The position numbers were made by a program, and so were the translations under genes. This document shows positions 30,100 to 60,655 of a stretch of DNA of 64,000 nucleotides, piece after piece. Position 1 is the first letter of the stretch. Each line of letters begins with the position of its first letter. Location: the NCBI GenBank assembly GCA_016182525.1, contig JACPGL010000029.1, positions 22,997 through 86,996 of the forward strand, written 5' to 3'. The notes under the pieces are model-generated. The model saw nothing but the letters and a program-made list of their open reading frames with translations, searched no databases and was not told where the DNA came from. The DNA comes from Candidatus Kerfeldbacteria bacterium (GTDB lineage Bacteria > Patescibacteriota > Patescibacteriia > JACPL01).

Positions 30100-30105
30100 A
30101 AAAAT

Positions 30106-31143: not shown

Positions 31144-32360
31144 GCACAACACATCGTCCCTATCGGGTTCTCATGGTCATTCCGTTTGTGCGGCATATTG
31201 GCGGCATGGAACGGCAATCGCTTCAGCTTGCTCAGGCGCTTTCTCGGCGCGGAGTTGGGGTCACGTTCCTCACGACTGCACGGCTGTGGGAATTTTTTGG
31301 TTCAAAACCCGCGCGAGTGCACGGGGACATCGAAGGGTTCCCTGTTGTCACGATTCCCGGCGTCTACATTCCGATCATGAAAAATTTTCCTCTTGAATTT
31401 CTTCTCTGGGGAATGGCGTATCTCGCCTTTCATCGCCGATCATTCGATATTCTCCATGGGCACCAATTATTTTCTTCCGGAGTCGTTGTTGGAGCCGGGA
31501 CGCGCTTGTTTGGCATCCCTTCTCTTGTCAAACTTGCGCGCTCGGGCAAGCTCGGCGATGTGGAAGATGTCGAAACTCGTCCATTCCAGAGGATTAAAAA
31601 ATTCATTTTTCGTTCGATCACTCGTTTCATTGCCATGACGCCTGCCTTTGTCGAGGACCTGACACATTTCGGCATCGCACAAGAGAAGATTGCGCTCATC
31701 CCCAACGGCGTTGATACCGAGCGATTCGCCCCTCCGGCCTCTCGTGAACACAAAAATGAAATCCGTACACGCCTTGGTCTTCCGCTTGACCGGCCGATCG
31801 TGCTCATGGACTCGCGTCTTTCTCCTTCAAAACGCCCAGAACATGCGCTCGCGGCATGGAAGATCGTCCATGATGCTGAACCCAATGCCCTTCTTGTGGT
31901 GATCGGCCGCGGCGGATCACGGGAATCGCTGCCGCCTCATCTCACGATGTTTGTCCACAAACACGGGCTTGAAGCTTGCGTGGATTTCCGCGGCGTTGTG
32001 CCAAACCCCGAAGACTATGCAAAAGCCGCCGATCTGTTCACGCTCGGCTCGCGATCAGAAGGCATCAGCAATGCCCTGCTCCAAGCTGCCACAACGGAGT
32101 TAGGGATTGCGGTGCCAAACAATCCCGGAAATGCATCGGTTATTCAAGACGGCGTGAGCGGCATTCTTGCGGATCTTGATTCCCCTGAATCCCTTGCACG
32201 CGCGCTTCTTTTTCTCCTTCAAAATCCTGAACAAACAAAAACCATGGGCGAGCGCGCTCGCGAGCATGTTCAAAAACACTTTTCCTTTTCCTCTGTGTCT
32301 TCCGAATATCTGAATCTGTATCACGAACTCACTCGTGCGAACGTAAGTGCTTCTTCGTAA
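31140..32360 (+). CDS. GT4 glycosyltransferase
   Basis: VLMVIPFVRHIGGMERQSLQLAQAL is a GT4 N-terminus and a C-terminal GT-B domain is present. Confidence 0.8.
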   Translation: MSTTHRPYRVLMVIPFVRHIGGMERQSLQLAQALSRRGVGVTFLTTARLWEFFGSKPARVHGDIEGFPVVTIPGVYIPIMKNFPLEFLLWGMAYLAFHRRSFDILHGHQLFSSGVVVGAGTRLFGIPSLVKLARSGKLGDVEDVETRPFQRIKKFIFRSITRFIAMTPAFVEDLTHFGIAQEKIALIPNGVDTERFAPPASREHKNEIRTRLGLPLDRPIVLMDSRLSPSKRPEHALAAWKIVHDAEPNALLVVIGRGGSRESLPPHLTMFVHKHGLEACVDFRGVVPNPEDYAKAADLFTLGSRSEGISNALLQAATTELGIAVPNNPGNASVIQDGVSGILADLDSPESLARALLFLLQNPEQTKTMGERAREHVQKHFSFSSVSSEYLNLYHELTRANVSASS

Positions 32361-37401: not shown

Positions 37402-37402
37402 A

Positions 37403-39332
<1,930 letters not shown>

Positions 39333-39336
<4 letters not shown>

Positions 39337-42489: not shown

Positions 42490-42492
42490 AAT

Positions 42493-43650
42493 CTACCCGA
42501 GGTATGCTTTTAGAACATCGACTTGATCGGTTTTTTCCCATGTGAAATCTGCGTCATTGCGTCCGAAATGGCCATAGGCAGCGGTCTTTTGATAGATCGG
42601 CCTCTTGAGTTTAAGGTGTTTGATAATTCCGCGCGGCGTCAACGGGAAGTGCTTCTCGACAATTTCAGCAATGTTCTCTTCGGGCAGTTTGCCTGTCCCG
42701 AATGTGGTCACAAACACCGACACCGGTTTGGCAACGCCGATAGAATACGAGAGTTGGATTTCACACTTTTCGGCAAGTCCGGCCGCAACCACATTTTTGG
42801 CAATATAGCGGGCCATGTACGCCGCCGAACGATCGACTTTTGACGGATCCTTTCCTGAAAAACATCCTCCTCCATGGCGTGCATACCCGCCGTATGTGTC
42901 TACGATAATCTTGCGACCGGTCAGCCCTGTGTCCGCTTCTGGCCCTCCAACAATAAAGACACCGGTTTCGTTGATAAAGACTTTTGTTTCATCATCCATC
43001 CATTTTCCACACACCGGTTGAATCACTTCTTTCTTGATATCAGAGATGATCTGCTCACGAGACACTTCGGGATTGTGGTGAACGGCAATCACGACTGCAC
43101 GCACGCGCGTCGGTTTGCCATCCACATATTCAACCGTGACCTGCGATTTACCGTCCGGGCGAACCCATGGCAAGATTCCTTTTTTTCGAACTTCGGACAA
43201 TCGCATGGTTAATCCATGCGCAAGCGAAATCGGCAAGGGCATAAGCTCCGGCGTTTCATTGCAGGCAAATCCAAACATCAAGCCTTGATCTCCTGCTCCC
43301 TGCTCGTGATCAGAGCTTTCATTCACACCAACCGCGATGTTCTGGCTCTGTTCATGAATGCTCGTCAACACTCCGCAGTCATAACAGTCAAGGCCGAATT
43401 CTGGATTGGTGTATCCAATGTCTTTGAGCGTTCGGCGCACAAGCCCCTGAATATCGACATACGCATTTGTCGTGACTTCACCTCCGACAACAACAAGACC
43501 CGTCGTGGTAAAACACTCAACCGCGACTCGGGAGTTTGGATCCTTTTCCAAGAGCGCGTCGAGAACGGCGTCTGAAATCTGATCGCAAATCTTATCCGGG
43601 TGCCCCTCGGTCACCGATTCTGAAGTAAAGATGGAAGATGCATGAGCCAT
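42493..43650 (-). CDS. metK: S-adenosylmethionine synthase
   Basis: [25 protein letters not shown] and the [16 protein letters not shown]-like motif are canonical MetK sequences. Confidence 0.95.
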
Positions 43651-43690
43651 AGAGAGATAAAAAAATAGGAATCAAATGCGAAGAATACAA

Positions 43691-44776
43691 TTAGGATTTT
43701 TGTGAAGAAGGTTGAGGGGTGGAGGTATCAAGCCGTTGAATATGGCTGCGCCCGCGCATCGCTTCGATGGTCCGTTGTAACCCATCCTCAAGCGAGACCA
43801 CAGGGAACCACCCGAGCGCGTCGCGAGCCTTGTCTACATCTGGCACTCCTTGGCGTTGATGGTAGGGCAATGGGTCAGCAAATTGAACGCTGGACGTCGA
43901 TTGAGCAAGGTGAATCACGTGATCGGCAAGCGCTCGGATCGTCAGTGGTTCAGGGTTTCCGATATTCACCGGACCCGCCTCTCGAGATGCCATCACTTTC
44001 ATGAGCCCTTCAATACAGTCCGAAACATAGCAAAATGTGCCAGTTTCCGAGCCTGTTCCATAGATCGTGAGCGGCGTGTTCGAAAGAGCAGATTCAACAA
44101 AATCCGGGATGAGCCGCCCATCCCCCAGTTTCATCTTTGGACCATAGGTATTAAAGACGCGAACGACTTTTGTGTCAAGTTTTTCCGCCATCCGATAGTT
44201 CATGCACAAACTCTCGGCAAATCGCTTTCCTTCGTTATAGCAACTTCGAGGCCCCATCGGATCCACATAGCCCCAATAATCCTCCTTCGTCGGCGCATCA
44301 AGGAGCGGCGAACCATACACGGCCGAAGACGACGTAAAAACGACTTTTGCTGAATACTTTTTCGCAACATCAAGCACGTTTTTGGTTCCCAGTGCGCTCG
44401 TCAAAATGGTCGGAAGCGGAAATTTTTCATAATAGGCAGGAGAGGTTGGGCACGCGAGATGATAGATTTCTTGAATGCCCTGAAAACGCACTTTGAATTT
44501 TTCTAAAATCGGATACTTTTGAATATCAGCCAAATCAAACGGCTCGGTAATATCATGTCGAATAAACTCGAAATTATAGTGCCGGAGAAACTCATCAATG
44601 TTATCCTCTATGCCCGAAACAAAGTTATCAATGCAAATCACATTCCGATTTTCAAGAAGCCGTTCGGTGAGGTGAGACCCAATAAACCCAGCGCCTCCGG
44701 TAATGATGACGTTCGGGCGTTCAAAAACTGGATTCTTTTTTCCCATGGTGTTCTGAATAGATTCCGCGAGCATCAT
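43691..44776 (-). CDS. UXS/ArnA-family NAD-dependent sugar-nucleotide decarboxylase/dehydratase paralog (divergent, with an insertion and a C-terminal tail)
   Basis: [13 protein letters not shown]...DNFVSG...YHLACPTSPAYY...TSSSAVYG...EDYWGYVDPMGPRSCYNEGKRFAES is a UXS-like core with an extra ~25-aa insertion. Confidence 0.6.
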   Translation of the reverse strand: MMLAESIQNTMGKKNPVFERPNVIITGGAGFIGSHLTERLLENRNVICIDNFVSGIEDNIDEFLRHYNFEFIRHDITEPFDLADIQKYPILEKFKVRFQGIQEIYHLACPTSPAYYEKFPLPTILTSALGTKNVLDVAKKYSAKVVFTSSSAVYGSPLLDAPTKEDYWGYVDPMGPRSCYNEGKRFAESLCMNYRMAEKLDTKVVRVFNTYGPKMKLGDGRLIPDFVESALSNTPLTIYGTGSETGTFCYVSDCIEGLMKVMASREAGPVNIGNPEPLTIRALADHVIHLAQSTSSVQFADPLPYHQRQGVPDVDKARDALGWFPVVSLEDGLQRTIEAMRGRSHIQRLDTSTPQPSSQKS

Positions 44777-45476: not shown

Positions 45477-45490
45477 ACTATACCAAAATA

Positions 45491-47160: not shown

Positions 47161-47164
47161 ATTT

Positions 47165-47926
47165 TTACGCCCACGGTGCACTAAGGAGTGCGATCGCAAT
47201 CGTTGCGCACCCGATAATCAGATACCGTTTGAGCACTGATCGATCGAGCGCGTGCACATAATAATAGCGCGATACATTGACGATCATGTAATACAGGGAG
47301 GTGAGCACAAGTCCCGCAACAGACATGCCAAGCGGTGAAAGCGCTAACACCCAAAAGCTTTCGACAAGAACAATACTGATGATGAGGATGGACACTTTTG
47401 ACTGACCAAAGGGAATCATGCTCACGGCCATTGCGGAAAGCGTTGAAAGCGTGACCCCAAGGAGCCACACGAGAAGCAGCGCCCACACCGGTTGATTTAA
47501 AAAGCGAAGCAAGCCGAATAGCGCGCTCCCCATAAAAAACATCGCGAGAATGTTGAGCGAACTGGTGGTGTTGGCAAGTGATCGCGGCTGAAAGCGTTCC
47601 TGATCGTAATGAAACGAATAATAGCTATCCAGAAAAACGCCGAGAAGGCCGGCCGTGACAAGGAGACTTGCAAAAAAGATCACGGGCTGCTCAACAAAAA
47701 GCAAAAATCCAAATAACCCGAATATAACGAGCGGCGGCGTAAGATAAAATTCAATAATGGAGGCGATCGAAAAACCTTGATGAATAGCGATGAGCACAAG
47801 GAGGATCCCAAATCCTGAGGCAAGAAGAATCACATGCCAAAATGCAGGGAAAAAATACAACAGAACCCCTGATCCTGTCAAAAGAACCGGACTCACATAC
47901 ACAAGAAGACGAAGAAAGAGAATCAT
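47165..47926 (-). CDS. Polytopic integral membrane protein, function unknown
   Basis: It has ~7 hydrophobic helices. The ATG at 47924-47926 (MILFLRLLVY) was chosen because it avoids a 107-nt overlap with the upstream gene. The listed ORF extends to 48037. Confidence 0.4.
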   Translation of the reverse strand: MILFLRLLVYVSPVLLTGSGVLLYFFPAFWHVILLASGFGILLVLIAIHQGFSIASIIEFYLTPPLVIFGLFGFLLFVEQPVIFFASLLVTAGLLGVFLDSYYSFHYDQERFQPRSLANTTSSLNILAMFFMGSALFGLLRFLNQPVWALLLVWLLGVTLSTLSAMAVSMIPFGQSKVSILIISIVLVESFWVLALSPLGMSVAGLVLTSLYYMIVNVSRYYYVHALDRSVLKRYLIIGCATIAIALLSAPWA

Positions 47927-47930
47927 GCGC

Positions 47931-48566
47931 TCATTTGATAATGAATTGAATTTCGCCGTCGCGGAGTTCAACATCTTTGACCGTACTCGCAAGCAGAATT
48001 TCGGTTCCAAATGTTTGGGCAAGTACGGATGTTGCAATGCTTTTCTGAAGAAACCGAGGGATAGAGACGGCGCCGAGTTTCATTGAAGTCACATCGAACT
48101 GAATTCCATCAGCCGCATTGATCGTCGCTTCGAATAAGAGGACGAACCGGTCATCTGGCCCAAACACTCGAAGGTATTCCATCCCTTCCGGTACAAGGAC
48201 GACTTGACTGACGGTATCGTCTTCGGATTGAAGACGGCGAGTGAGTTCAGCTTCGGTAAACTTCAGATCGACACCGTTGAATCCAATCGTGAACCTTTCG
48301 GCGATCGTCGATGAATCATTCTCACTCGCGACCACTCGGCGCGTGGGAACAGGCGCTTTGTAGACAAGATCCGAAAGAATCGGAATGGTGAACAGACCCG
48401 AAGCCGCAACAAACCACAAAGCGACACTGAGTATACCGAAAAAGACAAGAAATATCAAGGCGCGGAACGCCTGATGCATCCATCGAAAGGGATGAAATCC
48501 AATCCGCGATTTGGGCGGTGAAACAGACATGACCAATGGTTGCTCTTGTGTTTTTGAAACTCGCAT
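47931..48566 (-). CDS. Hypothetical bitopic membrane protein (211 aa) with an extracytoplasmic domain
   Basis: It has an N-terminal TM (ALIFLVFFGILSVALWFVAASGLF). No family was recognised. Confidence 0.45.
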   Translation of the reverse strand: MRVSKTQEQPLVMSVSPPKSRIGFHPFRWMHQAFRALIFLVFFGILSVALWFVAASGLFTIPILSDLVYKAPVPTRRVVASENDSSTIAERFTIGFNGVDLKFTEAELTRRLQSEDDTVSQVVLVPEGMEYLRVFGPDDRFVLLFEATINAADGIQFDVTSMKLGAVSIPRFLQKSIATSVLAQTFGTEILLASTVKDVELRDGEIQFIIK

Positions 48567-48567
48567 A

Positions 48568-49608
48568 TTAATAGGTCAGCCCATCTTTTTCGGAAACACG
48601 CTTCGCGCTATCCGAGCGGAGATCATAGACCATAACGGTCGTAGTACTTCCCTGAACCTCTTTATAGAGGACGGATTCATCAATGATCCGGACATCAAAG
48701 CCATTTTCCGAGATGGTTTGTGACGTTTTTGAAGCGAGCGAATAGACAAGCAGTTTTTGCCCACTCTGTTGATCGTCGAGCGCATACACGAGCGACGTAG
48801 AGTCAGCGGACAATTCGCCAGTAACGCCGGTCGTTTTTGGTAGAGAGATATTCCCCACGCGCGCCAGCGTCCCAGTTGAATCAAGCGTCGCAAGATCAAG
48901 CACGCCATCAAACTCGGCGAAAACAAGAAATGCGCTCCCTCCGGTTTCTCCGACAAAGCTCCACACAGCGCTTGAAAGCGCTGTCGGCTCTCCAAATGTG
49001 CCGTCAAGATTCCGCAAGCGAATAGCCAGCTCACTCTGCCCCTTTTCGTTTTTCGAAAGAGTGGCGATCCCGCGCCCATCACGAAGCCATCGCGCTTCCT
49101 GAATGTCGCTCGCAATTCTCTGCCGTTCTTTTGAGGCAATGCGGATGACTGATCCGCTGAGTATTCCCTCTGAACCTCGCTCGAGCAAAAAAAGCGCTTT
49201 GTCGTCCGGAGAAAGCGCAAAATCAACCACTTCGAGTTTCCCCTCACTGACCCTCGACTCTGCGCCATTACTCTCCGCAATCCACACACTCCAGAACGGA
49301 TCGTCAAACGTTGAAAAAGCGATGAACTTCCCTGACGGCGAACGAACCACACGCTGTTCATCTCGATCGGGCGTTTCGCGCTGAACTTCAGTCCCTACAT
49401 CCGGCAAGACAAGATAGAGATCTGATTTCTTGTTCTCGGTGCGAATCAGCGGGATCATCTTATCAAAAGGAGGATACGTTGATGACTGCTGTGTGATCCG
49501 GGCTTCTGGAAGTTGAGACGGGAGAAAAAATACAAAAATACCGACGAGGAATGCGCACATAAAGAGAATTCCGAACAACCAACGAGTCATAAGGGTTTTC
49601 CCTTCCAA
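48568..49608 (-). CDS. TolB-like/PD40 beta-propeller protein with an N-terminal signal anchor
   Basis: It has an N-terminal TM and then repeated SPDGK/SPSGK...F motif blades (VRSPSGKFIAFST, ALSPDDKALFLL). Confidence 0.5.
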   Translation of the reverse strand: MEGKTLMTRWLFGILFMCAFLVGIFVFFLPSQLPEARITQQSSTYPPFDKMIPLIRTENKKSDLYLVLPDVGTEVQRETPDRDEQRVVRSPSGKFIAFSTFDDPFWSVWIAESNGAESRVSEGKLEVVDFALSPDDKALFLLERGSEGILSGSVIRIASKERQRIASDIQEARWLRDGRGIATLSKNEKGQSELAIRLRNLDGTFGEPTALSSAVWSFVGETGGSAFLVFAEFDGVLDLATLDSTGTLARVGNISLPKTTGVTGELSADSTSLVYALDDQQSGQKLLVYSLASKTSQTISENGFDVRIIDESVLYKEVQGSTTTVMVYDLRSDSAKRVSEKDGLTY

Positions 49609-49611
49609 CGT

Positions 49612-50796
49612 CTATTCATATCGAAGCGCCCATAGGGGATTCAACCGCGAGGCGCGCCACGACGGATACAAACCGGTGATAAACCCAAGTAAAACCGATA
49701 AGATAAGCATCGCAACGGCAAGATCGAGATTCACAATAAAGAGTTGAACCGTTTCACCTCCATATCGCTCGGCGAGGATATTAATACCACTATTTGCAAG
49801 AAATCCTACCAACCATCCTGCGCCAATTCCGATCACCCCGCCAATCAAACCCACCACAAGCGCTTCTGATAAAAAAATAGCCATCACGTCGCGATTCGTC
49901 GCACCGACCGATTTCATAATCCCAATGTCGCGCGTGCGTTCAAGCAGAGAAATCGTGAGGGTATTGAACATGCCGATTGACGCAACGACGAGCGCAATCA
50001 CACCAAAGATCGCCAGGATCACTTTCACAACATTAAAAACCACCGTCACTTCGGTGAGCGTGTCGGCCGGCGACTCCACAAAATATCCCATATCCTGAAT
50101 CGTTGTGCGAGTTGATGCAAGCAACTCAGGAGCTTTCGCAAGAGCTTTCACACTACTGTATTCACCGAACTCAACATCGGCAAGAGATGAAAGCGGAGCG
50201 AAAAGATAATTCTCATCTTCCGTTTCAACAACCCCATGGACGGTGTATGTTTTTTCTTTCCGAACAACGTCCGTTGTTCCTTTGACCGGAATAAAAATCG
50301 CGAGCCCAATTTCTTTGCCGAGAATCTCACTTGTGTTCTCGTATCCAAGAAGCTTTGAAAGCGTTGAGGAAACAACAACCCCGCCCGTGGCATCGGTAAA
50401 ATAGTCCCCACTCGCAAGCGTATTCACCTCAAGTTTGGCAAATTTTGATTCAACGCTATGGAGAACACTCTCCGTTGTGGTCTCGCCAAGCGTTGCCTGC
50501 ACTGAAAAACTTGCGCGCGGGCTCACCGATTCGATCGATTCGATGTCCTTGAATTTCTTTACCGTCTCTGCGTCAAGCTTCAAAATGTCGGATTTGCCCT
50601 TTGATACGTTCAAGAGGCGAAGTGCTTCTGATGAGGTAATCTGTTTCACCGTAATTTCTTCAAGCCCGCGCCCCAAAGAAACCAAAAACACAATGGCGCC
50701 GATCCCAATCACGACAGCGCCGACGGTTAAGAATGTTCGCAGTTTATTCGAACGGAACGTATCTTTGGCAATGTAAAATACGTCAATGGGCTTCAT
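49612..50796 (-). CDS. ABC transporter permease, FtsX/MacB family (large periplasmic domain between TM1 and TM2)
   Basis: The N-terminal TM is followed by a ~220-aa extracytoplasmic domain and then a 3-TM FtsX-like C-terminus. The protein is 394 aa. Confidence 0.85.
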   Translation of the reverse strand: MKPIDVFYIAKDTFRSNKLRTFLTVGAVVIGIGAIVFLVSLGRGLEEITVKQITSSEALRLLNVSKGKSDILKLDAETVKKFKDIESIESVSPRASFSVQATLGETTTESVLHSVESKFAKLEVNTLASGDYFTDATGGVVVSSTLSKLLGYENTSEILGKEIGLAIFIPVKGTTDVVRKEKTYTVHGVVETEDENYLFAPLSSLADVEFGEYSSVKALAKAPELLASTRTTIQDMGYFVESPADTLTEVTVVFNVVKVILAIFGVIALVVASIGMFNTLTISLLERTRDIGIMKSVGATNRDVMAIFLSEALVVGLIGGVIGIGAGWLVGFLANSGINILAERYGGETVQLFIVNLDLAVAMLILSVLLGFITGLYPSWRASRLNPLWALRYE

Positions 50797-51671
50797 TTCT
50801 TCGTGCGTTTTCTCATCAAAATTTCACGCGCAAGATCAACTTCTTGATGAAATTCTTTCGGATTGATGTGAAGGGCTCGCGCCTGTGCATCGAGTTCAGA
50901 TCGGCGAGACTCCCGAGCCAGTTTTCGTGCTTCGCGGGTCAGACGAACATCTTGAATTTCTTTTTCTGATCGCTGCTGCTCTATCGATTTAATGATTTCT
51001 CCATCGCGCATATACAATACGCGATCGCCGTAATGCAAGTAATCAGGATTATGCGTGACGAGCAAAATCGTACGCTTGGATTTGCGATTGAGATCATGAA
51101 AAATCGCCATAATTTCTTCGGCCGTTGCCGAATCCACGTTCCCGGTTGGCTCATCGGCCAGAAGAATCCACGGGTTGTTCACGAGAGCGCGCGCAATCGC
51201 CACCCGCTGCTGCTGCCCTCCAGACAGTTCGGCTGGCCGATGGGAATAATATTCGCCAAGTCCCACCTCGCGAAGCAGCTCTTTGGCTCGGTGTTGGCGC
51301 GTTGACCGCCGTACGCCTCGGAAGAGCTCGGGCAGCGCAACATTATTCACGATATTCATGGTTTTGAGCAAGTTGAACTGCTGAAACACAATCCCGATTT
51401 TCTCGCGCCGGTGCCGCGCAAGCTGACTCATCGAAAGATGCGTTAAATCCTCTCCGCGGATCCGCACAACGCCTTTTGTGGGCGGTTCTAATCCTGCGAT
51501 GACGTTCAAAAGCGTGGACTTGCCGCATCCTGACGGACCGAACAAAATCACATACTCCCCAGGATGCACCGAAAAATCGATATTTTTCAGCGCGTGCAAC
51601 ACATTCTTCCCTAAAAAAAATTCTTTGGTGACGTTTTTCAGTTCAATCACTGGAGTGGAGTTCCGTGTCAT
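50793..51671 (-). CDS. ABC transporter ATP-binding protein (MacB/LolD/FtsE-like) with a ~70-aa charged C-terminal extension
   Basis: It carries Walker A (GPSGCGKST), the signature [15 protein letters not shown] and Walker B ([12 protein letters not shown]). The ATG at 51669-51671 overlaps the stop of the giant gene (ATGA). Confidence 0.9.
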
Positions 51672-54600
51672 TCTTTTCGAAAGAAAATATGCTTGATCTC
51701 TCCAACCCACGAGAATGTTCGCTCGAGTGAAGAGACGACTTCTTCAAGCACCGATTCCGCCGCTTGGGGGGTGAGCAATGTGAAATCGCTGGACTGTGCA
51801 ATGTTCCCCGATTCATCAATGGAGAGAGCGCGGAAATGATACGTGGTACTCGGCAAGAGACCCGGCAAGATCACGGTGTGCGAACGATTCAGCGTATCAT
51901 CTTTTGGCGAGCGTAATTGATACTGGCCTCCGGTGACAACGCCCGGAGAGTACTCAACCTGCGCTGTGGAGAATTCATCGGCAACCCAAAAGACGATCGC
52001 TTGCACTTTGCCGCCTGCGCCCAAAGAAGAGACTTCCGTCTTCATGCCAGTCAGGACCGGCGGTGCGGTATCGGCATTTGTCGTCAAGGTATTTGAACCG
52101 GAGGCGGCGCGATTCCCAAACTCATCGGTGCCCGTGATGCGGAACGAATAGGTCGTTTTTGGTCTCAGACTTGTAAGCACAATCTCATGCGCCGTTACAC
52201 GATCAGGTTTGCCCTGCGACTGATCGAATAATCCCGCCTCGCCAAATTCAACAATCGAATCGGTTGCGACATTCGTTGACCAGGTGATTTTCGCGGTGTC
52301 GTAGCCCACGCTATCGAGCGTCACTCCTGAAACTGTCGGAAGGGTTCGTGTCGAAAAGACATAATCATCGGATGCAATCACGCTACCATTCTCTTCTGCT
52401 CCGATCACTTGTACATGATATGTCACCCCATTGTTAAGCTCATCAAGAAGCACCGTGTGTTGTGTCGTAAAATCCGTGCTCTCATCATTGATGACTGTTC
52501 CATATTCGGTGTCTTCACCATACTGCAGTCTTGAGTTTGCAATACGGTTTGTTGTCCACGAAACAATCGCCGAATCGAGTGTGATGCTACTCACCTGCAG
52601 CCCAAGCACAGACGGATTCCCGATCGCCGCTCTTGACGTGGTGAAATTCAAGACATCCGAAATCGTTTCGTTGTTATACACATCAACAGATTGGACTTTG
52701 TAATAATATGTTGTTGCGGCCGAGAGATTTGAAAGTGTCACAAAATGCGAAACATTCAAGAGCTGGTCATCCTCGGTTTCTTGATCAAGATTCGCGGGCG
52801 TTGTGCCATAGACCACGCTTGAGGTGGACGCAGCATCGGTGACCCACGAAATGATCACCGTGTTTGAGGAAACGCCGGCCGATTGCGTGCCAATATCCGA
52901 GATCGTTGGTGGGACATCGGATCCAATAGGTGCAGTGGTCAAAAAGGTGCCAGTTTCCCCAAGCGAGAGATTGCCCGCTTCATCAGTTGAGCGGACGCGG
53001 AAATAGTGCACCTTGAGCGGAGTCAGACCAATAATGGTAACGCTATGATTTGTGATGAGTGTTGGATCGCCTTGAATCGTTCCAAACTCTTCGGAATCTC
53101 CGAATTCAACAAACGAATCTGCCGGCTCGTTTGTCACCCATGTGACGGTCGCGGTTGAATCTGTCGGAGTGACAATGGCTCCATCTCCGGTAACACTCGG
53201 TGCAGTCACATCATCATCCGACTCGATCGTTTCAAACGTATACTCATCGCCGATCGATTCATTACCGTTGGCGTCTGTGGAACGAACGCGATACGAATAG
53301 GTTGTTTGGGGCTGCAAATTTTCGATTTCGACTTGATGCGCAAGGACATATTCTAAATCGCAGACAATCGTGCCATAATCAGAGCTTGTTCCAAATTCAA
53401 TGCACGATGTGGATGATTCATCGGTTGTCCATGCAATGGTTACCGAATTTTGTGTTGTCACGGCAACGGGAGCCTCACCAGAAAGATCGGGCCCTTGCGC
53501 ATCTGCTCCGCCTGGTTGGCCAAAAGCAACGGATGAAGGGCTGGAATTGTTGCCTGCGCTGTCCTGCGTGACAATACGATAATAATAGGTTGAGTTTGCC
53601 GCAAGACCCGTATCGAGGAAGCCACTATCCGTAATCGTATTTAAGGTTGCGCGATTTGAGTACGTTGAACTATCGGTTGAGCGCTGAACGACATATCCTC
53701 CAAAGTCGGGGTTGCGAGCAGATGTGACTGGCGTCCATGTTGCCGCTAAACTGTAGCGATCCAGCCCAGCATCAGAGGCATCGGCAACCGAAACCGCAGT
53801 CACAATGTCGTTTGCAGACGTATCAAGCGTAATCGTATCGCTCGCTGTCGTGGCAGTATTGCCGTATGTATCACGGTACTTCACATACGCAGTGCGTATG
53901 CCATCAGATCCTGCGGTCAACCGCCACGCTTTTGCTGTCGTGTAGGTCTCCCACGTTCCGGAATTCGTCACCAAACCATTTGTATCGACGACTGTTCCAA
54001 ATGTCGTGCCGTCGTTACTGAATGTCATCTGTATGGCCGTATCATCACTTGAACTCAAGGTAAGGGTGACCGCGACAGAGTTGGTTGTTGACGCGGAGGA
54101 GTTAATCGTGATCGAAGTCGCTCCTGCAAGCGGCGTTTTCGTATCAACATCAAAGCTGCTGCTTGTCGCCGAAGCGGTGTTGTTGAGGGTATGCCCATCA
54201 TCAAGCGTCACCTTCACTTTGACCACGTCATCAAGGAATGAATTCGTGAAATTGCTTGAGAGCGTCCAATGAATCGTTTTGGTTGCTGCTGTTCCTGTCA
54301 CGGCAACACCTGAACCCACATTACCAGTTTTGGTTGTCGGCGTGTTCCATGTGGTTCCGCCGTCAACCGAATACTGTAGCGTCACGGTGACTGAAGTGTC
54401 ATCTTGATCACTTGCCTCGTAGGTGACTTTTGCCGTTCCATCCGTTTGCGCAACCACGGCAAGATTTGCGATGACCGGAGCGAGATTGCGCTCGTATGTA
54501 ATGTTAAACGTATCGAGCGTTGGAGAGGTGTCATCTGATGACGAGTCAAGATAGGCTTGAATGCGGAGATACCGCGAACTTGTCAAACCAGAGAGACTTG

Positions 54601-57600
54601 CACCAGAACTTGTGTAGTATGAGGAGTAACTAGAATAGGTGACTCCATCCGATGAGGTGGCAAACCGAAATTTCACATCAGTGCCAGAGGGTTCAGTCGT
54701 TGTAAAATTAAGCGTGCTCCATCCAACTGTGATGCCGGCATCAAAATCGTATGTCCATGTGCCATTGAGCAAGCTCGCGGCAACGGTGACATCTTCCACT
54801 TGCGGATTTTGGGATGCGCTCGTGGTGGAAAGATCAATACGGTACTGCATATACCGATGCCCGTCGGTCATACAACTGTTTGTTGTCATGTCCGTGCCGC
54901 TGGAAATGCCGCTGCACGACGCCCAATCGGTTGCTCCGCTCATGTCCGAATTGTTGGACGACCGCACTTTCACGGTAATGGTTTGGGAATTCGCGGTTGA
55001 ATTAAACGTAATATTCCCCCACGTGGAATTGGTTGTGCCAAAATCTTTGATGGTTGAAACCAACGAACCAGACGGCGCAACACCCGGATAGAACCGTGTG
55101 ACACCTTCAGATGTGCCCAGCACAAGATCCGCAACATTTCCGGACGCAATAGCCCCTTGGATCGCGGTCATATCGTTATCCACCATATTCGGTGTCGAAC
55201 TTGACTCGCGCCAACTATCGCCCTGAACCGCGTTCGCGCTATTCACGCTATTCAATTGGGTAAGCGAACCATCATCAGCGCCGCCGGCATTGGTTGCCAC
55301 CCATGCTCGCGTTCCATCACTTGTGGGAAAAACTGCCGACACATTATCAATTGTTCCTTCCAAGGTGTGATAGCGGAACAGGGGTCCATTTGTCAGTGTT
55401 CCGTTATTTGATTTTGTTCCGGAATCTGTCGCCGTTGTGCCCGACCCATCATTGAAGTGCAACAACAATCCTTTTGTCGCACTGCCCGGGAAACTAAACT
55501 CTGCGCCTGGCACGGTAAAAGACGCGCCAGAATGTTCCGCCGTGTCGGAAATCAAGAGCTCATCAATCGTGCCGTTGAAGAAGGCTTCTTCTCCATTGTG
55601 GTCTGCGCGGCCAATATACAGTGCTTGTTCCGATGGATCCGGCAATGCCGAAATCGTGCGTGTGGCCTGACGCGTGCCATCAATATACAAGCTGGCGGTC
55701 GATCCATTAAAGACCAGTGACACCAAATACCACTGATCCGCAGTCCAGGATGTTGTTGTCGATTGCAATGTCACCGCATTCCCGACGGACCGAACGTCTC
55801 CAACGCTCGTTAGCCCCTGGCCAACATACAGCTCCCCTTGGAACGACCCTAGGCGATTAAATTCCGCATACGTGGACAGACTTGCCGTTGCTTCTTCCCA
55901 TTCGCTCTGATCATCACAGTACTCGGTGTTGCCAGCACGCTCGGCATAGCAGGCAAAGAGCTGCTCACGATCCTCATCATTCATATACAGCTTATCCTGA
56001 AAAACGAATAAGTCATTCACGGTGTTCTTCGTTCCGGGATAGACGAGCGTCCATTCGTTCGCATTATCACATGCCGTGGTTGTGCCGCCTACGCTCGGGT
56101 CGCACATGTACACATCATTATCCCCACCAGCAGTACTTCCGAAACCAGCGTACAGGCGACCGCGGAACGTCGCTAAGGCGTTGACCGTTTCATATTCCAC
56201 CCCATCCCACACCGTGGACCAGTCGCCGGAGTCGCACAGTGTCGCACTACCGGTTGCAGACGGATTGCACATCAATACATCGCCATCTCCAGCTCCACTC
56301 CCCATGCCTGCGTATAACCGACTATTGAAGACCTCGAGGGAATTAAAAAGTTCCTGTGAGCCATTGTAAGATGTCGACCAGTCGCCGGAGTCGCAAAAAT
56401 CTGTCGCACCGGTTGTCGTTGGATCACACACTATAACATCGCCATCACCTGCTGAACTTCCTGATAAACCGGCATAGAGATAGCCATTCATCTCCTCAAA
56501 GACAATCGCATTTTCTGCAAGCGACGAATTATACACAAGAGAGAAATCTCCAGACTCACACGTTGTTGCTCCACCGGTTAGATCCACATCACATCCGGCA
56601 ATATCCCCTTCTGCACTTCCATCTCCCATCCCGCCATACAGATTTCCCTTAAACTCTTTTGCCGAATACACCCCATTGTAGACGGTTGACAATGTATAAA
56701 TGCTGGAGAAGTCAGCCGTTTCACAGGTATCCGCGTCGCCGTTGCCGCTCGGATTACACATAATGATTTCTCCGGTTCCCGTGTTTACCTCCACGCCGGT
56801 ATACAACCGGTCGTTAAAGTTGACCGATTCCCATGTCTGATCATTTGACCCATCATAGGCGGTGGGGTTGCTCATTTTCATCACATTCGCTCCTCCGTTG
56901 GTACCTGTTCCAGACGTGACAATCAAATTTCCTTGGTAGGTTCCCATGTCTCCCCATGTACTGGTGTCGGTATTGACCACCGTTGTCCACTCCCCAGTAA
57001 GACAGATGGTATCGGCACCTGGTGTACACTCATACACATCACCTTCGCCTCCTGAACCTCCGCCTGATGCATACACTTTTCCGTTAATCGTTTCCATATC
57101 ACGGACATAATCATCAGCGGAATTATCGTATGACGAAGCCCAGTCCGCATCTTCGCACACTGTTGACCCACCAGAAGTTGCCGGGTTACACGCGATAAGA
57201 TCTCCGTCCCCCGCACTCGTATCACCAAAGCCAGCATACAGAGCTGTGCTCGTTGCAAAGAGCACGCGAATACTTTCATACGACGACGTATTGACCGGCG
57301 TGGTATTCGCTCCATCCCACGCGCGAATATCCGAACTGTTCACAAACCAGATATCAGCATCGCTACTTGTCGCCGTTCCTTGCGTCGTAAAGTACACAAA
57401 GGTATCCGCGCCGGAGGTGAAGGTTGTCAGACCACGCGTTGAGAGATAGTTATCAAAATCCAGGTACACGACCCAATCAGTGCTGGTACATTCGTTATCC
57501 CCGCCGGGTGTACACTTTAACAAATCAGCACTGCCGGCGGTTCCTTCTGTGGTCATGTAAAGCTCACTATTATAGGCCGCAAAACTTGTGACGCTTCCTT

Positions 57601-60589
57601 GATTGCTTGTATTCGCATACGCGCTGGTAAAGTCCAATGCATTGTCGCAAAGACTTGCGTTTCCTGCTGTCGCTGGATTACAGATCGTAACATCCGCATC
57701 GCCCGCGCTCGATCCCATCCCGATATACATGCGACTATTAAACACTTCGATATTACGAGCGGATTCATACGATGCGCCCGCATCATAGGCAGCCGTAAAA
57801 TCTCCATTCGCATCACAAATGTCCGCATTTCCATTTGATGATTGCGTACAATAGAACAGTTCGGCTTCTCCCGCTTCTCCACCAAACGAAACGTACATGG
57901 TGCTGTTCAGCGTCGTAAAATCCGTGACGTAGTTAAAATTTGTCGCGGCGACGCTCGTATCATAGGCAATCGCCCAATCCCCGGAATCGCATGTTGTTGC
58001 CCCGCCTGTTGTCGCGGGGTTGCAATAATACACATCCCCATCGCCCGAGGAGTTCCCGGTCCCAGCATACAGATAACTGTTAAAAACATACAGCGATGAA
58101 ACAAACTCATACGCCGAACCTGGGGCATACGATAACGACCAATCCAGGGGTGAGTCACACTTTGCGGTCGAGGCGCCACCCGCTGCTGGATCGCACACCC
58201 AAATTTGCCCGTCCCCCGCGATGCCCTGCGTCCCGACATACAATTTTGAATTGAACGTCGCCGCCGCGCCTTCGGCCATAAATGCATCAAAACCCGTATC
58301 ACGCACTTTTGTCCAATCACCAAAGTTATCGCATCTCGTTGCTCCCCCGATCGTCGCCGGATCGCAGATAAAAAGATCACCGTCGCCATCACCGGTTCCA
58401 CCGCCGGCGTACAGATAGCCGTTAAAGACGGTTAAGCCCTCGAATCGCTCATAGTTCGCGCCTGTATCGTCGTAGGAAATATGGATGTTGCCGAGATCAA
58501 AGATATCGGCTTCCCCCGCGGCCGCGCCGACGCCCGCATACACGCGACTATTGAAAACTTCAATATTCTCGATCCCGTTCGTTGCGTCGTAACGGAAATA
58601 GGTGCGCCAGTCGGCGCTTTCACAAACATTCGTATCCCCGCTTGCTTGGGGATAGCAATACCACAAGTCCGCCAAATCCTCGACTGACGCATACAGATAC
58701 GTTCCATCCTGCGCAAGGTCGGTGACACGATTTTCCAACGTATTCAGTGAGATGGTCCAGTCGCCAGAGTCGCAAAACGTCGCGCCTCCTGAATCTGCAG
58801 GGTCGCAGACATAGACATACCCATCCGTCACATTGCCTCCTGTTCCAATATACAAGCGACTGTTAAAAACGATCAGCTCATCAATATATTGCGTGCCGGT
58901 TGTCAGCACAGTTGTCCAATTATCGCCGTCAAACGCTAACACCGAGCCATCCCCTTGGCTCGTCCCGACTCCAATATAGAGGACATCGTTAAATTCCACA
59001 ACGCCATTGACGTGATCAGTGGTGCCTGTCAGGGATCCCCACAAACCCACAGTGCTCGCTGTTGAAGCGCCGGCGCCAAGCGGACCTTGATCGCCGAACT
59101 CAAAATTCAGTTTTCCGGTCTGATGGTCAAAATACGCTTGGAATTGCTCGCCTTTCGAAAGAAGCGGCGCATCTTTGGCTTGGGAATCGGCAGAAAAAGC
59201 ACTTGGGAACTTCACATACATGTCAACCGTAAAGCTCGCGGTCAAATCCATGTCATCGTCGTCGCTCACTTTGACATAGTCATCGGTGCCGTCGAATTTC
59301 AATGCGCTTTTAAACCCGGTTGAAGCGTAACCGGAGTTGCCGGCCGTGGCTTCGTTGACATAATGTCGCACCGTTCCCGAAGCTTGGGTGGAATGTTCCT
59401 GAAGAATGGAAAGTCCTGAATTGGTTCCGACAAAAATCGTATTGGACGTTGCTTGCGCCGTTGAAGTATTGACCGTGGCTTCAAGCGAATTGATGGTATT
59501 GGAAAGAATCGCCGGAGTGGTTGCCGTGGTATAGTTCACGGTTTCCGTAAATCCCGCGCCTAAACCTGAAACATTATCCTTTCGCTGCAGCTTCGCGGTT
59601 GTTGAACCGTAATAATAGAGTTCATTGTCGGTTGTGACTCGAACAAGGGAATACGAACTTGTTTCCGAAGAATTTTTGCTTGTTGCGGCGGTTTCATTGA
59701 CGACCGTCACGCCACCCGCTGTTGCCACGGCAAGATAGGTGCTTCCGGAAATGACCGCGCCCCACAGGTCGTTGACGTTATTGTTCACAATGGCAGGGGA
59801 TGTGGACGAGAGATAGGTGGCTGAACCCACCGAGGTGTTTCCACTAATGTTGTTAATCACATACTTGAACACCCCGCCATCGCCGTCGCCGGCATACACA
59901 TTGGTGGCATCGGCATAGACAGCGGTAAATCCGTTTGCGAGCGAAACGTATCCTTTGGACGTGTTTGTGGATTTGGTGATCACGTCCAGCCCACCGGCTG
60001 TTGCAATAAACAAATACGTGCCATTGTCAAAAACGTCATTGATGACATTCGAGCCCGTATTCAATCCTGACCCGTTCGTAAAATTCTGCGCCACTTCGGC
60101 TTTGAGTTTTGTTTCGGTGGTGGGGTTAATGGCGTAATCAGCCGACGTGTAGTTGTTACTCCCCCAATTCGTATCAACAAATTGGTTATTTGTGGTTGAG
60201 AGCACCAAATCTGTGCCGGTTTTTACGGTATTTGACTTTGTGGCAGCAGCATTATCCCAATCCACATCTGTTGGAACTGTCAAGGTAAGGGTTGCCGCAG
60301 TAATGCGCTGATACGAAACCATTCCCGCCAAAATCAAAACAGCAAGAATCGGAAGAGCGATCGCTCGGTGCTCGCGGAAAAATGATCCAAGGTGCGCTAT
60401 TCTCAGGCGAAACGGTTTCGCTTGCGCACGGGTAAGCTTCAGATCCTCCTTATGATGATGCGGTATGGTTGTTTTTCTTTTCCTCCGTTTGGCCAAGGTT
60501 AGAAAAATAAATAAACTCAAAGCACCATTTATTATAACACAAAATCCCCTTTCATGCGATTGTGGATAAGTAACGAAAAAAGAATACAC
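51668..60589 (-). CDS. Giant (~2.9k aa) N-terminally anchored surface protein. It has ~20 tandem ~50-aa Cys-containing propeller-like repeats, two LamG (concanavalin-like) domains, Ig-like modules and seven FN3/purple-acid-phosphatase-N-like repeats. The true start is probably downstream of the listed GTG, near the Shine-Dalgarno at 60445-60451.
   Basis: The ORF is 8.9 kb and uninterrupted. The repeat consensus is FNSxLYAGxGxxxGDGDVxxCxPxxxGGATxCDSGDWxxxYD. The LamG domains lie at about aa 425-500 and 1600-1700. FN3-like 100-aa units (AWTTDESSTSCIEFGTSSDYG...YSYRVRSTDANGN) occur seven times at the C-terminus. A TM segment (AIALPILAVLILAGMV) lies near the N-terminus. Confidence 0.85.
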   Translation of the reverse strand: MYSFFVTYPQSHERGFCVIINGALSLFIFLTLAKRRKRKTTIPHHHKEDLKLTRAQAKPFRLRIAHLGSFFREHRAIALPILAVLILAGMVSYQRITAATLTLTVPTDVDWDNAAATKSNTVKTGTDLVLSTTNNQFVDTNWGSNNYTSADYAINPTTETKLKAEVAQNFTNGSGLNTGSNVINDVFDNGTYLFIATAGGLDVITKSTNTSKGYVSLANGFTAVYADATNVYAGDGDGGVFKYVINNISGNTSVGSATYLSSTSPAIVNNNVNDLWGAVISGSTYLAVATAGGVTVVNETAATSKNSSETSSYSLVRVTTDNELYYYGSTTAKLQRKDNVSGLGAGFTETVNYTTATTPAILSNTINSLEATVNTSTAQATSNTIFVGTNSGLSILQEHSTQASGTVRHYVNEATAGNSGYASTGFKSALKFDGTDDYVKVSDDDDMDLTASFTVDMYVKFPSAFSADSQAKDAPLLSKGEQFQAYFDHQTGKLNFEFGDQGPLGAGASTASTVGLWGSLTGTTDHVNGVVEFNDVLYIGVGTSQGDGSVLAFDGDNWTTVLTTGTQYIDELIVFNSRLYIGTGGNVTDGYVYVCDPADSGGATFCDSGDWTISLNTLENRVTDLAQDGTYLYASVEDLADLWYCYPQASGDTNVCESADWRTYFRYDATNGIENIEVFNSRVYAGVGAAAGEADIFDLGNIHISYDDTGANYERFEGLTVFNGYLYAGGGTGDGDGDLFICDPATIGGATRCDNFGDWTKVRDTGFDAFMAEGAAATFNSKLYVGTQGIAGDGQIWVCDPAAGGASTAKCDSPLDWSLSYAPGSAYEFVSSLYVFNSYLYAGTGNSSGDGDVYYCNPATTGGATTCDSGDWAIAYDTSVAATNFNYVTDFTTLNSTMYVSFGGEAGEAELFYCTQSSNGNADICDANGDFTAAYDAGASYESARNIEVFNSRMYIGMGSSAGDADVTICNPATAGNASLCDNALDFTSAYANTSNQGSVTSFAAYNSELYMTTEGTAGSADLLKCTPGGDNECTSTDWVVYLDFDNYLSTRGLTTFTSGADTFVYFTTQGTATSSDADIWFVNSSDIRAWDGANTTPVNTSSYESIRVLFATSTALYAGFGDTSAGDGDLIACNPATSGGSTVCEDADWASSYDNSADDYVRDMETINGKVYASGGGSGGEGDVYECTPGADTICLTGEWTTVVNTDTSTWGDMGTYQGNLIVTSGTGTNGGANVMKMSNPTAYDGSNDQTWESVNFNDRLYTGVEVNTGTGEIIMCNPSGNGDADTCETADFSSIYTLSTVYNGVYSAKEFKGNLYGGMGDGSAEGDIAGCDVDLTGGATTCESGDFSLVYNSSLAENAIVFEEMNGYLYAGLSGSSAGDGDVIVCDPTTTGATDFCDSGDWSTSYNGSQELFNSLEVFNSRLYAGMGSGAGDGDVLMCNPSATGSATLCDSGDWSTVWDGVEYETVNALATFRGRLYAGFGSTAGGDNDVYMCDPSVGGTTTACDNANEWTLVYPGTKNTVNDLFVFQDKLYMNDEDREQLFACYAERAGNTEYCDDQSEWEEATASLSTYAEFNRLGSFQGELYVGQGLTSVGDVRSVGNAVTLQSTTTSWTADQWYLVSLVFNGSTASLYIDGTRQATRTISALPDPSEQALYIGRADHNGEEAFFNGTIDELLISDTAEHSGASFTVPGAEFSFPGSATKGLLLHFNDGSGTTATDSGTKSNNGTLTNGPLFRYHTLEGTIDNVSAVFPTSDGTRAWVATNAGGADDGSLTQLNSVNSANAVQGDSWRESSSTPNMVDNDMTAIQGAIASGNVADLVLGTSEGVTRFYPGVAPSGSLVSTIKDFGTTNSTWGNITFNSTANSQTITVKVRSSNNSDMSGATDWASCSGISSGTDMTTNSCMTDGHRYMQYRIDLSTTSASQNPQVEDVTVAASLLNGTWTYDFDAGITVGWSTLNFTTTEPSGTDVKFRFATSSDGVTYSSYSSYYTSSGASLSGLTSSRYLRIQAYLDSSSDDTSPTLDTFNITYERNLAPVIANLAVVAQTDGTAKVTYEASDQDDTSVTVTLQYSVDGGTTWNTPTTKTGNVGSGVAVTGTAATKTIHWTLSSNFTNSFLDDVVKVKVTLDDGHTLNNTASATSSSFDVDTKTPLAGATSITINSSASTTNSVAVTLTLSSSDDTAIQMTFSNDGTTFGTVVDTNGLVTNSGTWETYTTAKAWRLTAGSDGIRTAYVKYRDTYGNTATTASDTITLDTSANDIVTAVSVADASDAGLDRYSLAATWTPVTSARNPDFGGYVVQRSTDSSTYSNRATLNTITDSGFLDTGLAANSTYYYRIVTQDSAGNNSSPSSVAFGQPGGADAQGPDLSGEAPVAVTTQNSVTIAWTTDESSTSCIEFGTSSDYGTIVCDLEYVLAHQVEIENLQPQTTYSYRVRSTDANGNESIGDEYTFETIESDDDVTAPSVTGDGAIVTPTDSTATVTWVTNEPADSFVEFGDSEEFGTIQGDPTLITNHSVTIIGLTPLKVHYFRVRSTDEAGNLSLGETGTFLTTAPIGSDVPPTISDIGTQSAGVSSNTVIISWVTDAASTSSVVYGTTPANLDQETEDDQLLNVSHFVTLSNLSAATTYYYKVQSVDVYNNETISDVLNFTTSRAAIGNPSVLGLQVSSITLDSAIVSWTTNRIANSRLQYGEDTEYGTVINDESTDFTTQHTVLLDELNNGVTYHVQVIGAEENGSVIASDDYVFSTRTLPTVSGVTLDSVGYDTAKITWSTNVATDSIVEFGEAGLFDQSQGKPDRVTAHEIVLTSLRPKTTYSFRITGTDEFGNRAASGSNTLTTNADTAPPVLTGMKTEVSSLGAGGKVQAIVFWVADEFSTAQVEYSPGVVTGGQYQLRSPKDDTLNRSHTVILPGLLPSTTYHFRALSIDESGNIAQSSDFTLLTPQAAESVLEEVVSSLERTFSWVGEIKHIFFRKE
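60531..60539 (-). promoter_or_regulatory. Candidate extended -10 promoter (TGTTATAAT on the minus strand) for the giant surface-protein gene
   Basis: The reverse complement of 60531-60539 is TGTTATAAT. It lies ~80 nt upstream of an AAGGAGG Shine-Dalgarno (reverse complement of 60445-60451). Both sit inside the annotated N-terminal extension of the ORF. Confidence 0.3.
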
Positions 60590-60654
60590 TTTCTCAAGGC
60601 GCTCCAGCGGAGCGAGAGTCTTCGCGACTTGAGAAAGTGTATTCTTTTTTCGTT
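60572..60654 (-). terminator. 27-bp perfect inverted repeat (aacgaaaaaagaatacactttctcaag / cttgagaaagtgtattcttttttcgtt) with a 29-nt structured loop, immediately 3' of corA. It is a putative bidirectional terminator/insulator.
   Basis: The perfect complementarity can be read directly. A-tract and U-tract arms flank it. The loop contains the GCTCC-AGC-GGAGC mini-hairpin. Confidence 0.4.
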
Positions 60655-60655
60655 C

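Follow-up and report, generated by a model that had tools for sequence, protein, structure and literature searches.

A giant surface protein and a MacB-type ABC pair as a recurrent cassette within a probably mosaic gene array of a Candidatus Kerfeldbacteria genome

In streamlined genomes, long co-directional runs of overlapping genes need a synteny test before they are read as a single system. Such a run of ~28 kb, encoding a giant surface protein together with genes for an ATP-binding cassette (ABC) pair, a protease-like protein and glycan synthesis, lies in a 64,000-nucleotide (nt) stretch of contig JACPGL010000029.1 (positions 22,997 to 86,996; assembly GCA_016182525.1) from Candidatus Kerfeldbacteria, which belongs to the candidate phyla radiation (CPR). 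This stretch is referred to as the window, and its own numbering is used throughout. Two window proteins match proteins of a Ca. Kerfeldbacteria metagenome-assembled genome with 100% identity, and the stretch is also found in a Logan assembly. A first-pass annotation made from the letters alone had proposed that the run encodes one dedicated secretion-plus-glycosylation system for the giant protein, and the question is whether it does. We consider it likely that the array is a mosaic, and we lean towards its being made up of at least four independently inherited modules rather than one dedicated system. Judged by sequence comparison, the part that is conserved and inherited together as a unit is the giant gene with those of the ABC ATPase and the FtsX/MacB-type permease.

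The gene map was drawn from the open reading frame (ORF) listing, inspection of start codons and Pfam and NCBIfam scans of the window. All array genes are on the minus strand. The giant protein (51668..60589; 2,973 amino acids (aa), identified from Pfam matches and sequence) is followed by an ABC ATPase of 292 aa (50793..51671; Pfam ABC_tran, 135 bits) and a type VII ABC permease of 394 aa (49612..50796). The giant has a basic region and a transmembrane (TM) anchor at its N-terminus (about residues 77-93), Laminin_G_3 domains and a C-terminal array of fn3/PurAcPhosph_N-like domains (about residues 2330-2940 by Pfam), and it ends in a helix, ESVLEEVVSSLERTFSWV, encoded within about 51680-51770. 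There is no ATG near the 5' end of its gene (region 60496-60655), where the longest ORF runs from a GTG at 60589; an early start is supported by the similarity to the homologue at locus L034, which begins at residue 16. Its first 25 codons contain a TATAAT-like sequence.

The conservation of these three genes was assessed with a query alignment of the window permease and two partial relatives from Logan contigs. A scan of one genome per GTDB species gave 80 loci, of which 53 were of CPR type (50 non-redundant) and the rest mostly from DPANN archaea, and a second scan of JGI metagenomes gave 42, for a total of 122 related ABC loci. All 21 array proteins, counting the CorA-type transporter upstream of the giant, were searched against the genome loci by tblastn and phmmer. 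Of the 50 non-redundant CPR loci, 34 have a tail-bearing fn3 partner immediately adjacent to the ATPase-permease pair, with 33 of these partners on the strand of the ABC genes, and 19 further metagenome loci are arranged likewise. Most loci have the partner upstream; it is downstream in L004, L034, L013, L029, L048, L050, L052 and L054. Several genomes have two or three cassettes (e.g. L009/L043, L013/L032, L018/L035/L042), and the genes that flank the cassette (beta-helix/FG-GAP proteins, Fpg, RecG, ComEA) bear no relation from one locus to another. As the adjacency recurs across CPR loci with varying order and unrelated flanks, the giant-ABC link is conserved, and a functional linkage is very likely. 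The co-occurrence in related genomes that the first-pass annotation had suggested as a check was therefore borne out for the giant and ABC genes.

Could the adjacency nevertheless be functionally meaningless, with the ABC genes being those of a cell-division FtsEX complex or of a generic efflux or resistance pump? NCBIfam scores of the ATPase are nearly equal for MacB, LolD and FtsE, and the permease has partial FtsX matches, which speaks for such a view. However, all FtsE and FtsX equivalog cut-offs were missed: FtsE scored 215.9 bits against 264.85, and the FtsX models scored 49-52 against 225-255 while covering only the C-terminal TM region. The permease moreover has a full MacB-type periplasmic domain, not the small extracytoplasmic domain of FtsX, and the pairing recurs in the 34 CPR and 19 metagenome loci with rearranged order, including as multiple copies within single genomes. 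We regard a chance neighbourhood as highly improbable.

What the partners share with the giant is its C-terminal 450-650 residues or so (~2330-2970), in proteins that range from 454 to >3,200 aa and stand beside ABC pairs that are orthologous or paralogous. All complete partners end alike, with a last fn3 strand (S.DYT..TP), a short linker, an amphipathic helix and then 5-20 residues, and in an alignment of 30 unique sequences the terminal helix shows the conserved motif SLLQxIxxxLExxFxW. A hidden Markov model (HMM) of the tail had matches at the very C-terminal ends of ABC-adjacent proteins and nowhere else, and within the window in the giant alone, a specificity test that is partly circular because most matches came from the training set; the model additionally turned up new cases at L013, L034 and L047. 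Every complete partner that was inspected begins with a Sec signal peptide or signal anchor. The giant's tail is not covered by any NCBIfam model, and a limited literature search found mention of giant or fn3-containing CPR surface proteins and none of an ABC link or of the tail motif, so the pairing seems to be undescribed.

A fourth component appears in other genomes. A Pfam census that took in 150 ORFs lying up to 3.4 kb from the ABC pair at ~45 CPR loci found TPR as the sole recurrent family (20 of 150). These neighbours are of ~200-220 aa, carry a TM segment at the N-terminus and adjoin the ABC genes directly (L007, L008, L012, L013, L016, L019, L024, L025, L027, L029, L031, L033, L037, L039, L040, L043 and L044), which suggests from gene order that a TM-anchored TPR protein is a fourth cassette member in most other CPR genomes. 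The window has no TM-TPR gene, and the position after the permease is held by a TM-anchored protein, unkA. The next gene, unkB, was considered as the missing TM-TPR component and rejected, since it has no TPR match and no similarity to the TM-TPR proteins.

In the DPANN relatives (L057-L083; Woesearchaeota/Nanoarchaeota), the ATPase and permease genes enclose a gene for a protein of 276-445 aa that has a signal peptide and beta-sandwich repeats and, at its C-terminus, a TM helix and a basic tail (e.g. L057 9147-9992, L059 8616-9953, L064 1922-2752), and these loci often carry two permease genes. Possibly this arrangement is what corresponds to the partner-ABC pairing in archaea. Some CPR-like contigs are deposited under the names of 'Gammaproteobacteria', 'Coxiellaceae' or 'Rikenellaceae' metagenome-assembled genomes (L004, L034, L020, L022, L066, L073, L078, L080), with identities to the window of, for example, 53% for the permease, 70% for the ATPase and 47% for the giant; CPR-like genes under such names suggest mis-binning or mislabelling.

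What, then, does the ABC pair do for its partner? The ATPase is intact, with Walker A, the signature LSGGQQQR, Walker B (ILLADEPT) and the H-loop (VTHN) all read from the translation. Its C-terminus (50793-51000) is a charged extension of ~65 aa that is common only to the closest relatives (L004, L034, L038), and most ATPase homologues span only about 75-83% of the window protein. The permease consists of TM1, a MacB-like periplasmic core domain (PF12704 MacB_PCD, residues 21-234, 67.5 bits against a cut-off of 27) and a three-TM FtsX domain (PF02687, residues 263-387, 83.6 bits against 25.5). With an FtsX domain, a large extracytoplasmic domain and an intact cognate ATPase, the pair falls in the type VII (MacB/FtsX) superfamily. 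Within that superfamily it stays below the equivalog cut-offs of MacB (224 and 79.8 bits against 966) and of LolCDE (lolCE 82.3 against 362, LolD 222.5 against 307.75) as well as those of FtsEX, and the cassette could be assigned to none of MacAB-TolC, LolCDE, FtsEX or type I secretion.

The first-pass annotation had called the pair an export apparatus. Read in this way, the pair would be a one-step exporter resembling a type I secretion system (T1SS), with the C-terminal helix as the secretion signal. As in T1SS substrates, the conserved signal is at the extreme C-terminus, and each large protein has a dedicated ABC pair at its side, often with several such copies to a genome; CPR bacteria are commonly taken to be without an outer membrane, so that a membrane fusion protein (MFP) and an outer membrane factor would be unneeded. 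However, all complete partners have the Sec-type signal peptide or anchor that T1SS substrates lack, and the permease combines FtsX with MacB_PCD and is not a six-helix ABC_membrane domain. No member of the HlyD/MFP or outer membrane efflux protein families was found among the 21 array proteins or the recurrent neighbours in 45 CPR loci. Type VII ABC structures (MacB, LolCDE, FtsEX) have no transmembrane substrate channel and work by mechanotransmission. The N-terminal Sec signal or anchor in every partner together with the type VII class makes a pore-type exporter role unlikely, export apparatus is a doubtful name for the pair, and we give one-step export little credence.

We tentatively prefer export by Sec, after which the ABC pair would use ATP to act on the stalk or helix; this is the most likely of the readings because the solved type VII transporters mechanotransmit and have no substrate path. 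The giant, the ATPase and the MacB/FtsX-type permease form a CPR-wide cassette, often in multiple copies per genome, whose partner follows a common plan: it starts with a Sec signal or anchor, goes on with a variable payload of 0 to >2,500 aa, and has a conserved C-terminal fn3 array and a terminal amphipathic helix. The giant would cross the membrane via Sec, and mechanotransmission would then let the ABC pair work on it from the outside, in the manner of FtsEX with EnvC or PcsB and of LolCDE with lipoproteins. Holding the C-terminal helix or the fn3 stalk, it would anchor, extend, extract or release the giant upon ATP hydrolysis, with the TM-TPR protein, or unkA in the window, as a possible scaffold.

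A more specific possibility, held with greater reserve, is that the helix SLLQxIxxxLExxFxW at the C-terminus serves as a hitherto unrecognized signal for docking or sorting. By it, Sec-exported proteins of ~450 to >3,000 aa would be committed to a dedicated MacB-type ABC, usually with a TM-TPR protein, and the ABC would mechanically anchor, erect or release them in an ATP-driven surface display that has an apparent DPANN counterpart. If this were true, it would be a new ATP-driven surface-display pathway in CPR bacteria. CPR bacteria (Patescibacteria) are believed to spend their lives attached to host cells, and their giant surface proteins are foremost among the candidates for recognizing the host. 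The cassette and its C-terminal motif provide a searchable signature for a class of CPR surface proteins and a concrete hypothesis of ATP-driven mechanotransmission onto a surface fibre, possibly a further role of type VII ABC transporters besides efflux, lipoprotein release and hydrolase activation.

Do the remaining genes of the array travel with this cassette? Downstream of the permease follow three poorly characterized genes, for none of which NCBIfam has a model. unkA (48568..49590) combines a TM anchor at its N-terminus with a probable beta-propeller, for which the evidence is weak (PD40/Tricorn_N-like): a faint Tricorn_N match on its homologue in the Logan contig L002, and weak NCBIfam propeller matches. 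It has three homologues among 5.8 billion proteins and is lineage-restricted. unkB (47931..48566) encodes 211 aa with one TM segment; it has no Pfam or NCBIfam match, and homologues were found only in L002 and L003. unkC (47165..47926) is a polytopic, all-helical membrane protein of 253 aa. It has 329 representative homologues, all of ~253 aa and annotated as PF18900/DUF5656, and its AlphaFold2 model (predicted local distance difference test score (pLDDT) 86) has ten helices; a fold search of the PDB with this model gave no match, and a metagenome scan with the unkC alignment gave no relatives.

The fourth gene of this group (45952..47160) was called HtrA-like in the first-pass annotation. The fold is upheld, as Trypsin_2 (38.3 bits) is followed by PDZ_2 (42.7 bits) in a membrane-anchored protein, but the catalytic function is not. 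Where HtrA/DegP proteases have the triad in TNxHV, D and GNSGGP, alignments with canonical HtrAs and the solved HhoA (5b6l) show His/Asp/Ser replaced by Gly/Arg/Asn, and the L002 orthologue has Thr, Gln and Glu at these positions. The protein is a PDZ pseudo-protease. Among gene identities that were otherwise mostly confirmed by Pfam and NCBIfam, it is the exception.

In three independent CPR contexts, DUF5656 is followed by a ~375-aa PDZ protein homologous to the pseudo-HtrA (phmmer 1e-20 to 1e-23); these PDZ genes are at L084 10807-11925, L086 10811-11947 and L088 7381-8508, and the gene of the L002 orthologue is at 3369-4565. The DUF5656-PDZ contexts have a PilT-like T2SSE ATPase and two small ORFs before and pgk and eno after the pair, and no ABC, giant or glycosylation genes were found nearby in those three. 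Since DUF5656 and the PDZ protein recur without the other array parts, DUF5656 and the catalytically dead HtrA-PDZ protein constitute a conserved CPR membrane pair of their own. The small ORFs upstream of DUF5656 in these contexts were considered as relatives of unkA and unkB and rejected for want of any similarity. A homologue search with the pseudo-HtrA itself was swamped by generic PDZ/HtrA matches and missed even the L002 orthologue.

The glycan genes begin with a GtrA-family small membrane protein (45491..45955; PF04138, GtrA_DPMS_TM, 88.9 bits against a cut-off of 26.1), a candidate flippase for lipid-linked sugars, and a family 2 glycosyltransferase (GT2) resembling the polyprenyl-phosphate sugar synthases GtrB, DPM1 and ArnC (44721..45476; Glycos_transf_2, 103.5 bits). 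After these comes a short-chain dehydrogenase/reductase (SDR) of the epimerase/decarboxylase type (43691..44746, start uncertain between 44746 and 44776; Pfam, NCBIfam), a paralogue resembling UXS and the ArnA decarboxylase that is 43% identical to the uxs-like gene further on. The housekeeping gene metK for S-adenosylmethionine synthetase (42493..43650; all three S-AdoMet_synt domains) intervenes. Beyond it lie genes for nucleotide sugars, namely galE-like (41545-42489; Pfam, NCBIfam), uxs-like (40622-41548; Pfam, NCBIfam) and ugd (39333-40625; NCBIfam subfamily cut-off passed), then a second GT2 resembling the polyprenyl-phosphate hexose transferase AglJ (38383-39336; Pfam, NCBIfam; 74.3 bits), gmd (37403-38362; NCBIfam equivalog cut-off passed) and an rmd-like reductase (36490-37401; Pfam, NCBIfam). 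Two family 4 glycosyltransferases (GT4; 35411-36493 and, as the last gene of the array, 32321-33430; Pfam) enclose a polytopic membrane protein of 674 aa (33427-35451), which is GT-C-like with a PMT_2 match just under threshold (24.3 bits, E = 4e-5, cut-off 26.1) and no NCBIfam match.

Both GT2 proteins have a clear GT2 domain, and their top NCBIfam matches are polyprenyl-phosphate sugar synthases (AglJ, PpgS, PgfS, ArnC), all under the equivalog cut-offs. By analogy with the Gtr, Arn and PMT systems, GtrA, the GT2s, the GT-C-like enzyme and the sugar genes plausibly make up a route of lipid-linked extracytoplasmic glycosylation. These glycan modules (GtrA, GT2s, GT-C, the genes for UDP-glucuronic acid/xylose and GDP-6-deoxyhexose, and the GT4s) would build one or more envelope glycoconjugates. 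The giant could be one acceptor of the locus glycan, and nothing ties it specifically to the glycan genes.

The glycan genes do not stop at the array. On the plus strand at 26426-32360 are a GT4, a Wzx-type flippase, an SDR, a GT1-like gene and another GT4; a GT2 lies on the minus strand at 25325-26413, outside the array, and beyond the corA-type gene are a DegT aminotransferase and a GFO/IDH/MocA oxidoreductase (61692-63753, plus strand). The sugar genes are part of a two-strand glycan locus of at least 38 kb, at about 25.3-63.8 kb, which encloses the block of giant, ABC, unk and PDZ genes. Because glycan genes continue on the opposite strand at both sides, the array as defined by strand is not a functional boundary.

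How much weight can the layout of the array itself bear? The unbroken minus-strand run from 60589 to 32321 that the first-pass annotation had described was confirmed and comprises 20 genes, and the run in fact begins one gene before its coordinates, with a CorA-type Mg2+ transporter gene (60656..61570; Pfam CorA, 219 bits) spaced 66 nt from the giant, which makes 21 genes up to 61570. Plus-strand genes bound it at 61692 and at 31140-32360; the latter, a GT4, converges on the last array gene, and their 3' ends share 40 nt (32321-32360). Eight of nine overlaps reported earlier were found in the junction table as ATGA stop/start overlaps: giant/ABC-ATPase, ATPase/permease and HtrA-like/GtrA in the upper part, and galE/uxs, uxs/ugd, ugd/GT2, rmd/GT4 and GT-C membrane protein/GT4 in the lower. 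The ninth, GtrA/GT2, did not hold, as it requires a GTG start at 45494, and the ATG at 45476, chosen independently in the gene call for this sequence in a Logan contig and adopted here, leaves a gap of 14 nt. At five junctions the genes are 1-4 nt apart, at three 14-21 nt (permease/unkA, GtrA/GT2, GT2/gmd), and two with uncertain starts imply overlaps of 26 and 41 nt; the 40 nt before metK, rightly singled out earlier as the only sizeable gap, is the largest inside the array.

Four-nucleotide overlaps occur at 8 of 19 array junctions and at ~5 of 21 same-strand junctions in the remaining window (Fisher p = 0.31). The frequencies do not differ significantly; the tight packing of the array is not special, and it is ordinary for this compact CPR genome. 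Scans for sigma-70-like promoter and terminator consensus sequences gave match counts at the level of shuffled sequence, so that a single transcript is neither supported nor refuted by them; the top minus-strand -35/-10 match is at 61620-61592, upstream of corA, and an Rfam scan of the window found no RNA family. The array is a tightly packed, probably co-transcribed run, and from its junctions translational coupling and co-transcription across it are plausible.

The proposal of a single system, in which the ABC pair exports the giant, the HtrA-like and propeller proteins act as chaperones, and GtrA, GT2, GT-C and nucleotide-sugar genes glycosylate it, draws on this co-directional run with its eight ATGA overlaps and no gap above 40 nt, and on the presence of a complete set for lipid-linked extracytoplasmic glycosylation (two polyprenyl-phosphate GT2s, GtrA and a GT-C-like enzyme). 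The synteny check, however, showed that of the whole set (giant, ABC, propeller, HtrA-like, GtrAB and sugar genes) only the giant and ABC genes co-occur. There was no match to unkA, unkB, unkC, the HtrA-like protein or GtrA within 10 kb of the ABC pair in the 80 genome and 42 metagenome loci, the block of GT2, GT-C and sugar genes was repeated at none of the 122, and no unk, PDZ, GtrA or glycan family was recurrent in the 150-ORF census. At a few ABC loci, GT2, GT4 or SDR genes of weak similarity stand in isolation, and their strand varies. The modules are apart in every other genome examined. The DUF5656-PDZ pair occurring elsewhere without the other parts, the missing catalytic triad, the interruption by metK, the glycan genes past both ends and the unexceptional overlap frequency also argue against one system, which we consider unlikely.

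Several observations weigh against the combination of a mosaic array and an ABC pair acting on its partner from outside. One close relative, L002 (36-59% identity), keeps the order permease-unkA-unkB-unkC-pseudoHtrA-GtrA-GT2, an argument for a single system, and another, L003, keeps permease-unkA-unkB; both are short Logan contigs that end before any giant or sugar genes could show. This retained order means that the modules may be functionally coupled within Kerfeldbacteria. A partner was not detectable at 16 CPR loci, most of which are contig-limited or have a large ORF truncated before its C-terminus; loci without detectable similarity have a truncated ORF of 1,800 to >2,900 aa after the ABC pair and a ~200-aa gene. 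The divergence of partners and permeases is correlated (Spearman 0.71, p = 4e-6), which speaks for the giant-ABC unit, but the correlation may partly reflect organismal phylogeny. An AlphaFold2 model of the C-terminal 674 aa of the giant from a single sequence reached a pLDDT of 36 and was unusable, and the mechanotransmission model rests on analogy.

Other genes of the window touch these subjects at a distance. S-adenosylhomocysteine hydrolase (14292-15545) is encoded 27 kb from metK on the same strand, the methyl-cycle genes being scattered among envelope genes. Genes resembling rmlD and rmlB are at 12031-14282, and PilM (2708-3754), CTP synthase, an S41 C-terminal protease and genes of the MurA/EPSP-synthase fold are also present upstream. 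Large ORFs without a Pfam match are at 21450-24482 (minus strand, 1,010 aa), 18843-20399 (minus strand, 518 aa) and 1116-2711 (plus strand, 531 aa); the C-terminal tail motif is absent from the 1,010-aa product.

Which known systems do these modules resemble? The pseudo-protease is similar to HtrA/DegP in its trypsin-like fold followed by PDZ and in its N-terminal membrane anchor, but differs in that the triad is replaced in the window protein and in CPR homologues and in its pairing with DUF5656. The glycosylation genes are like GtrA/GtrB/GtrC, ArnC/ArnE-F/ArnT and Ppm1/PMT in combining a GtrA-family protein, one or more polyprenyl-phosphate GT2s and a polytopic GT-C-like enzyme, and ugd and the UXS-like genes could supply UDP-glucuronic acid or a pentose, as in lipid-linked glycosylation systems. 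Unlike in GtrABC-type systems, the three parts are ~10 kb apart, the GT-C match is under threshold, and there is no conserved linkage to the giant-ABC cassette.

MacAB-TolC and LolCDE share with the ABC pair the class of the ATPase and the permease architecture of TM1, a periplasmic core and a three-TM FtsX domain. A MacA-like adaptor, TolC and LolA/B are absent here, and the pair stays under the equivalog cut-offs. LolCDE and Aat extract or present membrane-anchored proteins and are a possible analogue for the handling of the tail helix. Like FtsEX with EnvC, PcsB, CwlO or RipC, the cassette combines a type VII ABC and a Sec-exported partner, with proposed helical docking and no substrate transport. 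It differs from FtsEX in its full MacB-type periplasmic core, in the unmet equivalog cut-offs and in being multi-copy. Its partners are fn3-array or giant adhesin-like proteins in which no hydrolase domain was detected, and the docking candidate is a single C-terminal helix, whereas the partners of FtsEX have an N-terminal coiled coil.

Type I secretion of giant adhesins (LapA, SiiE, RTX adhesins) is similar in that a giant repetitive beta-sandwich protein with a C-terminal signal is encoded beside its own ABC transporter. Here, in contrast, the ABC is of type VII, there is no membrane-fusion or outer-membrane part, no RTX repeats were detected, and the substrate has a Sec signal or anchor. 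The likeness is thus limited to genomic logic, and the proposed working of the cassette would be closest to that of FtsEX with its partner, LolCDE or Aat.

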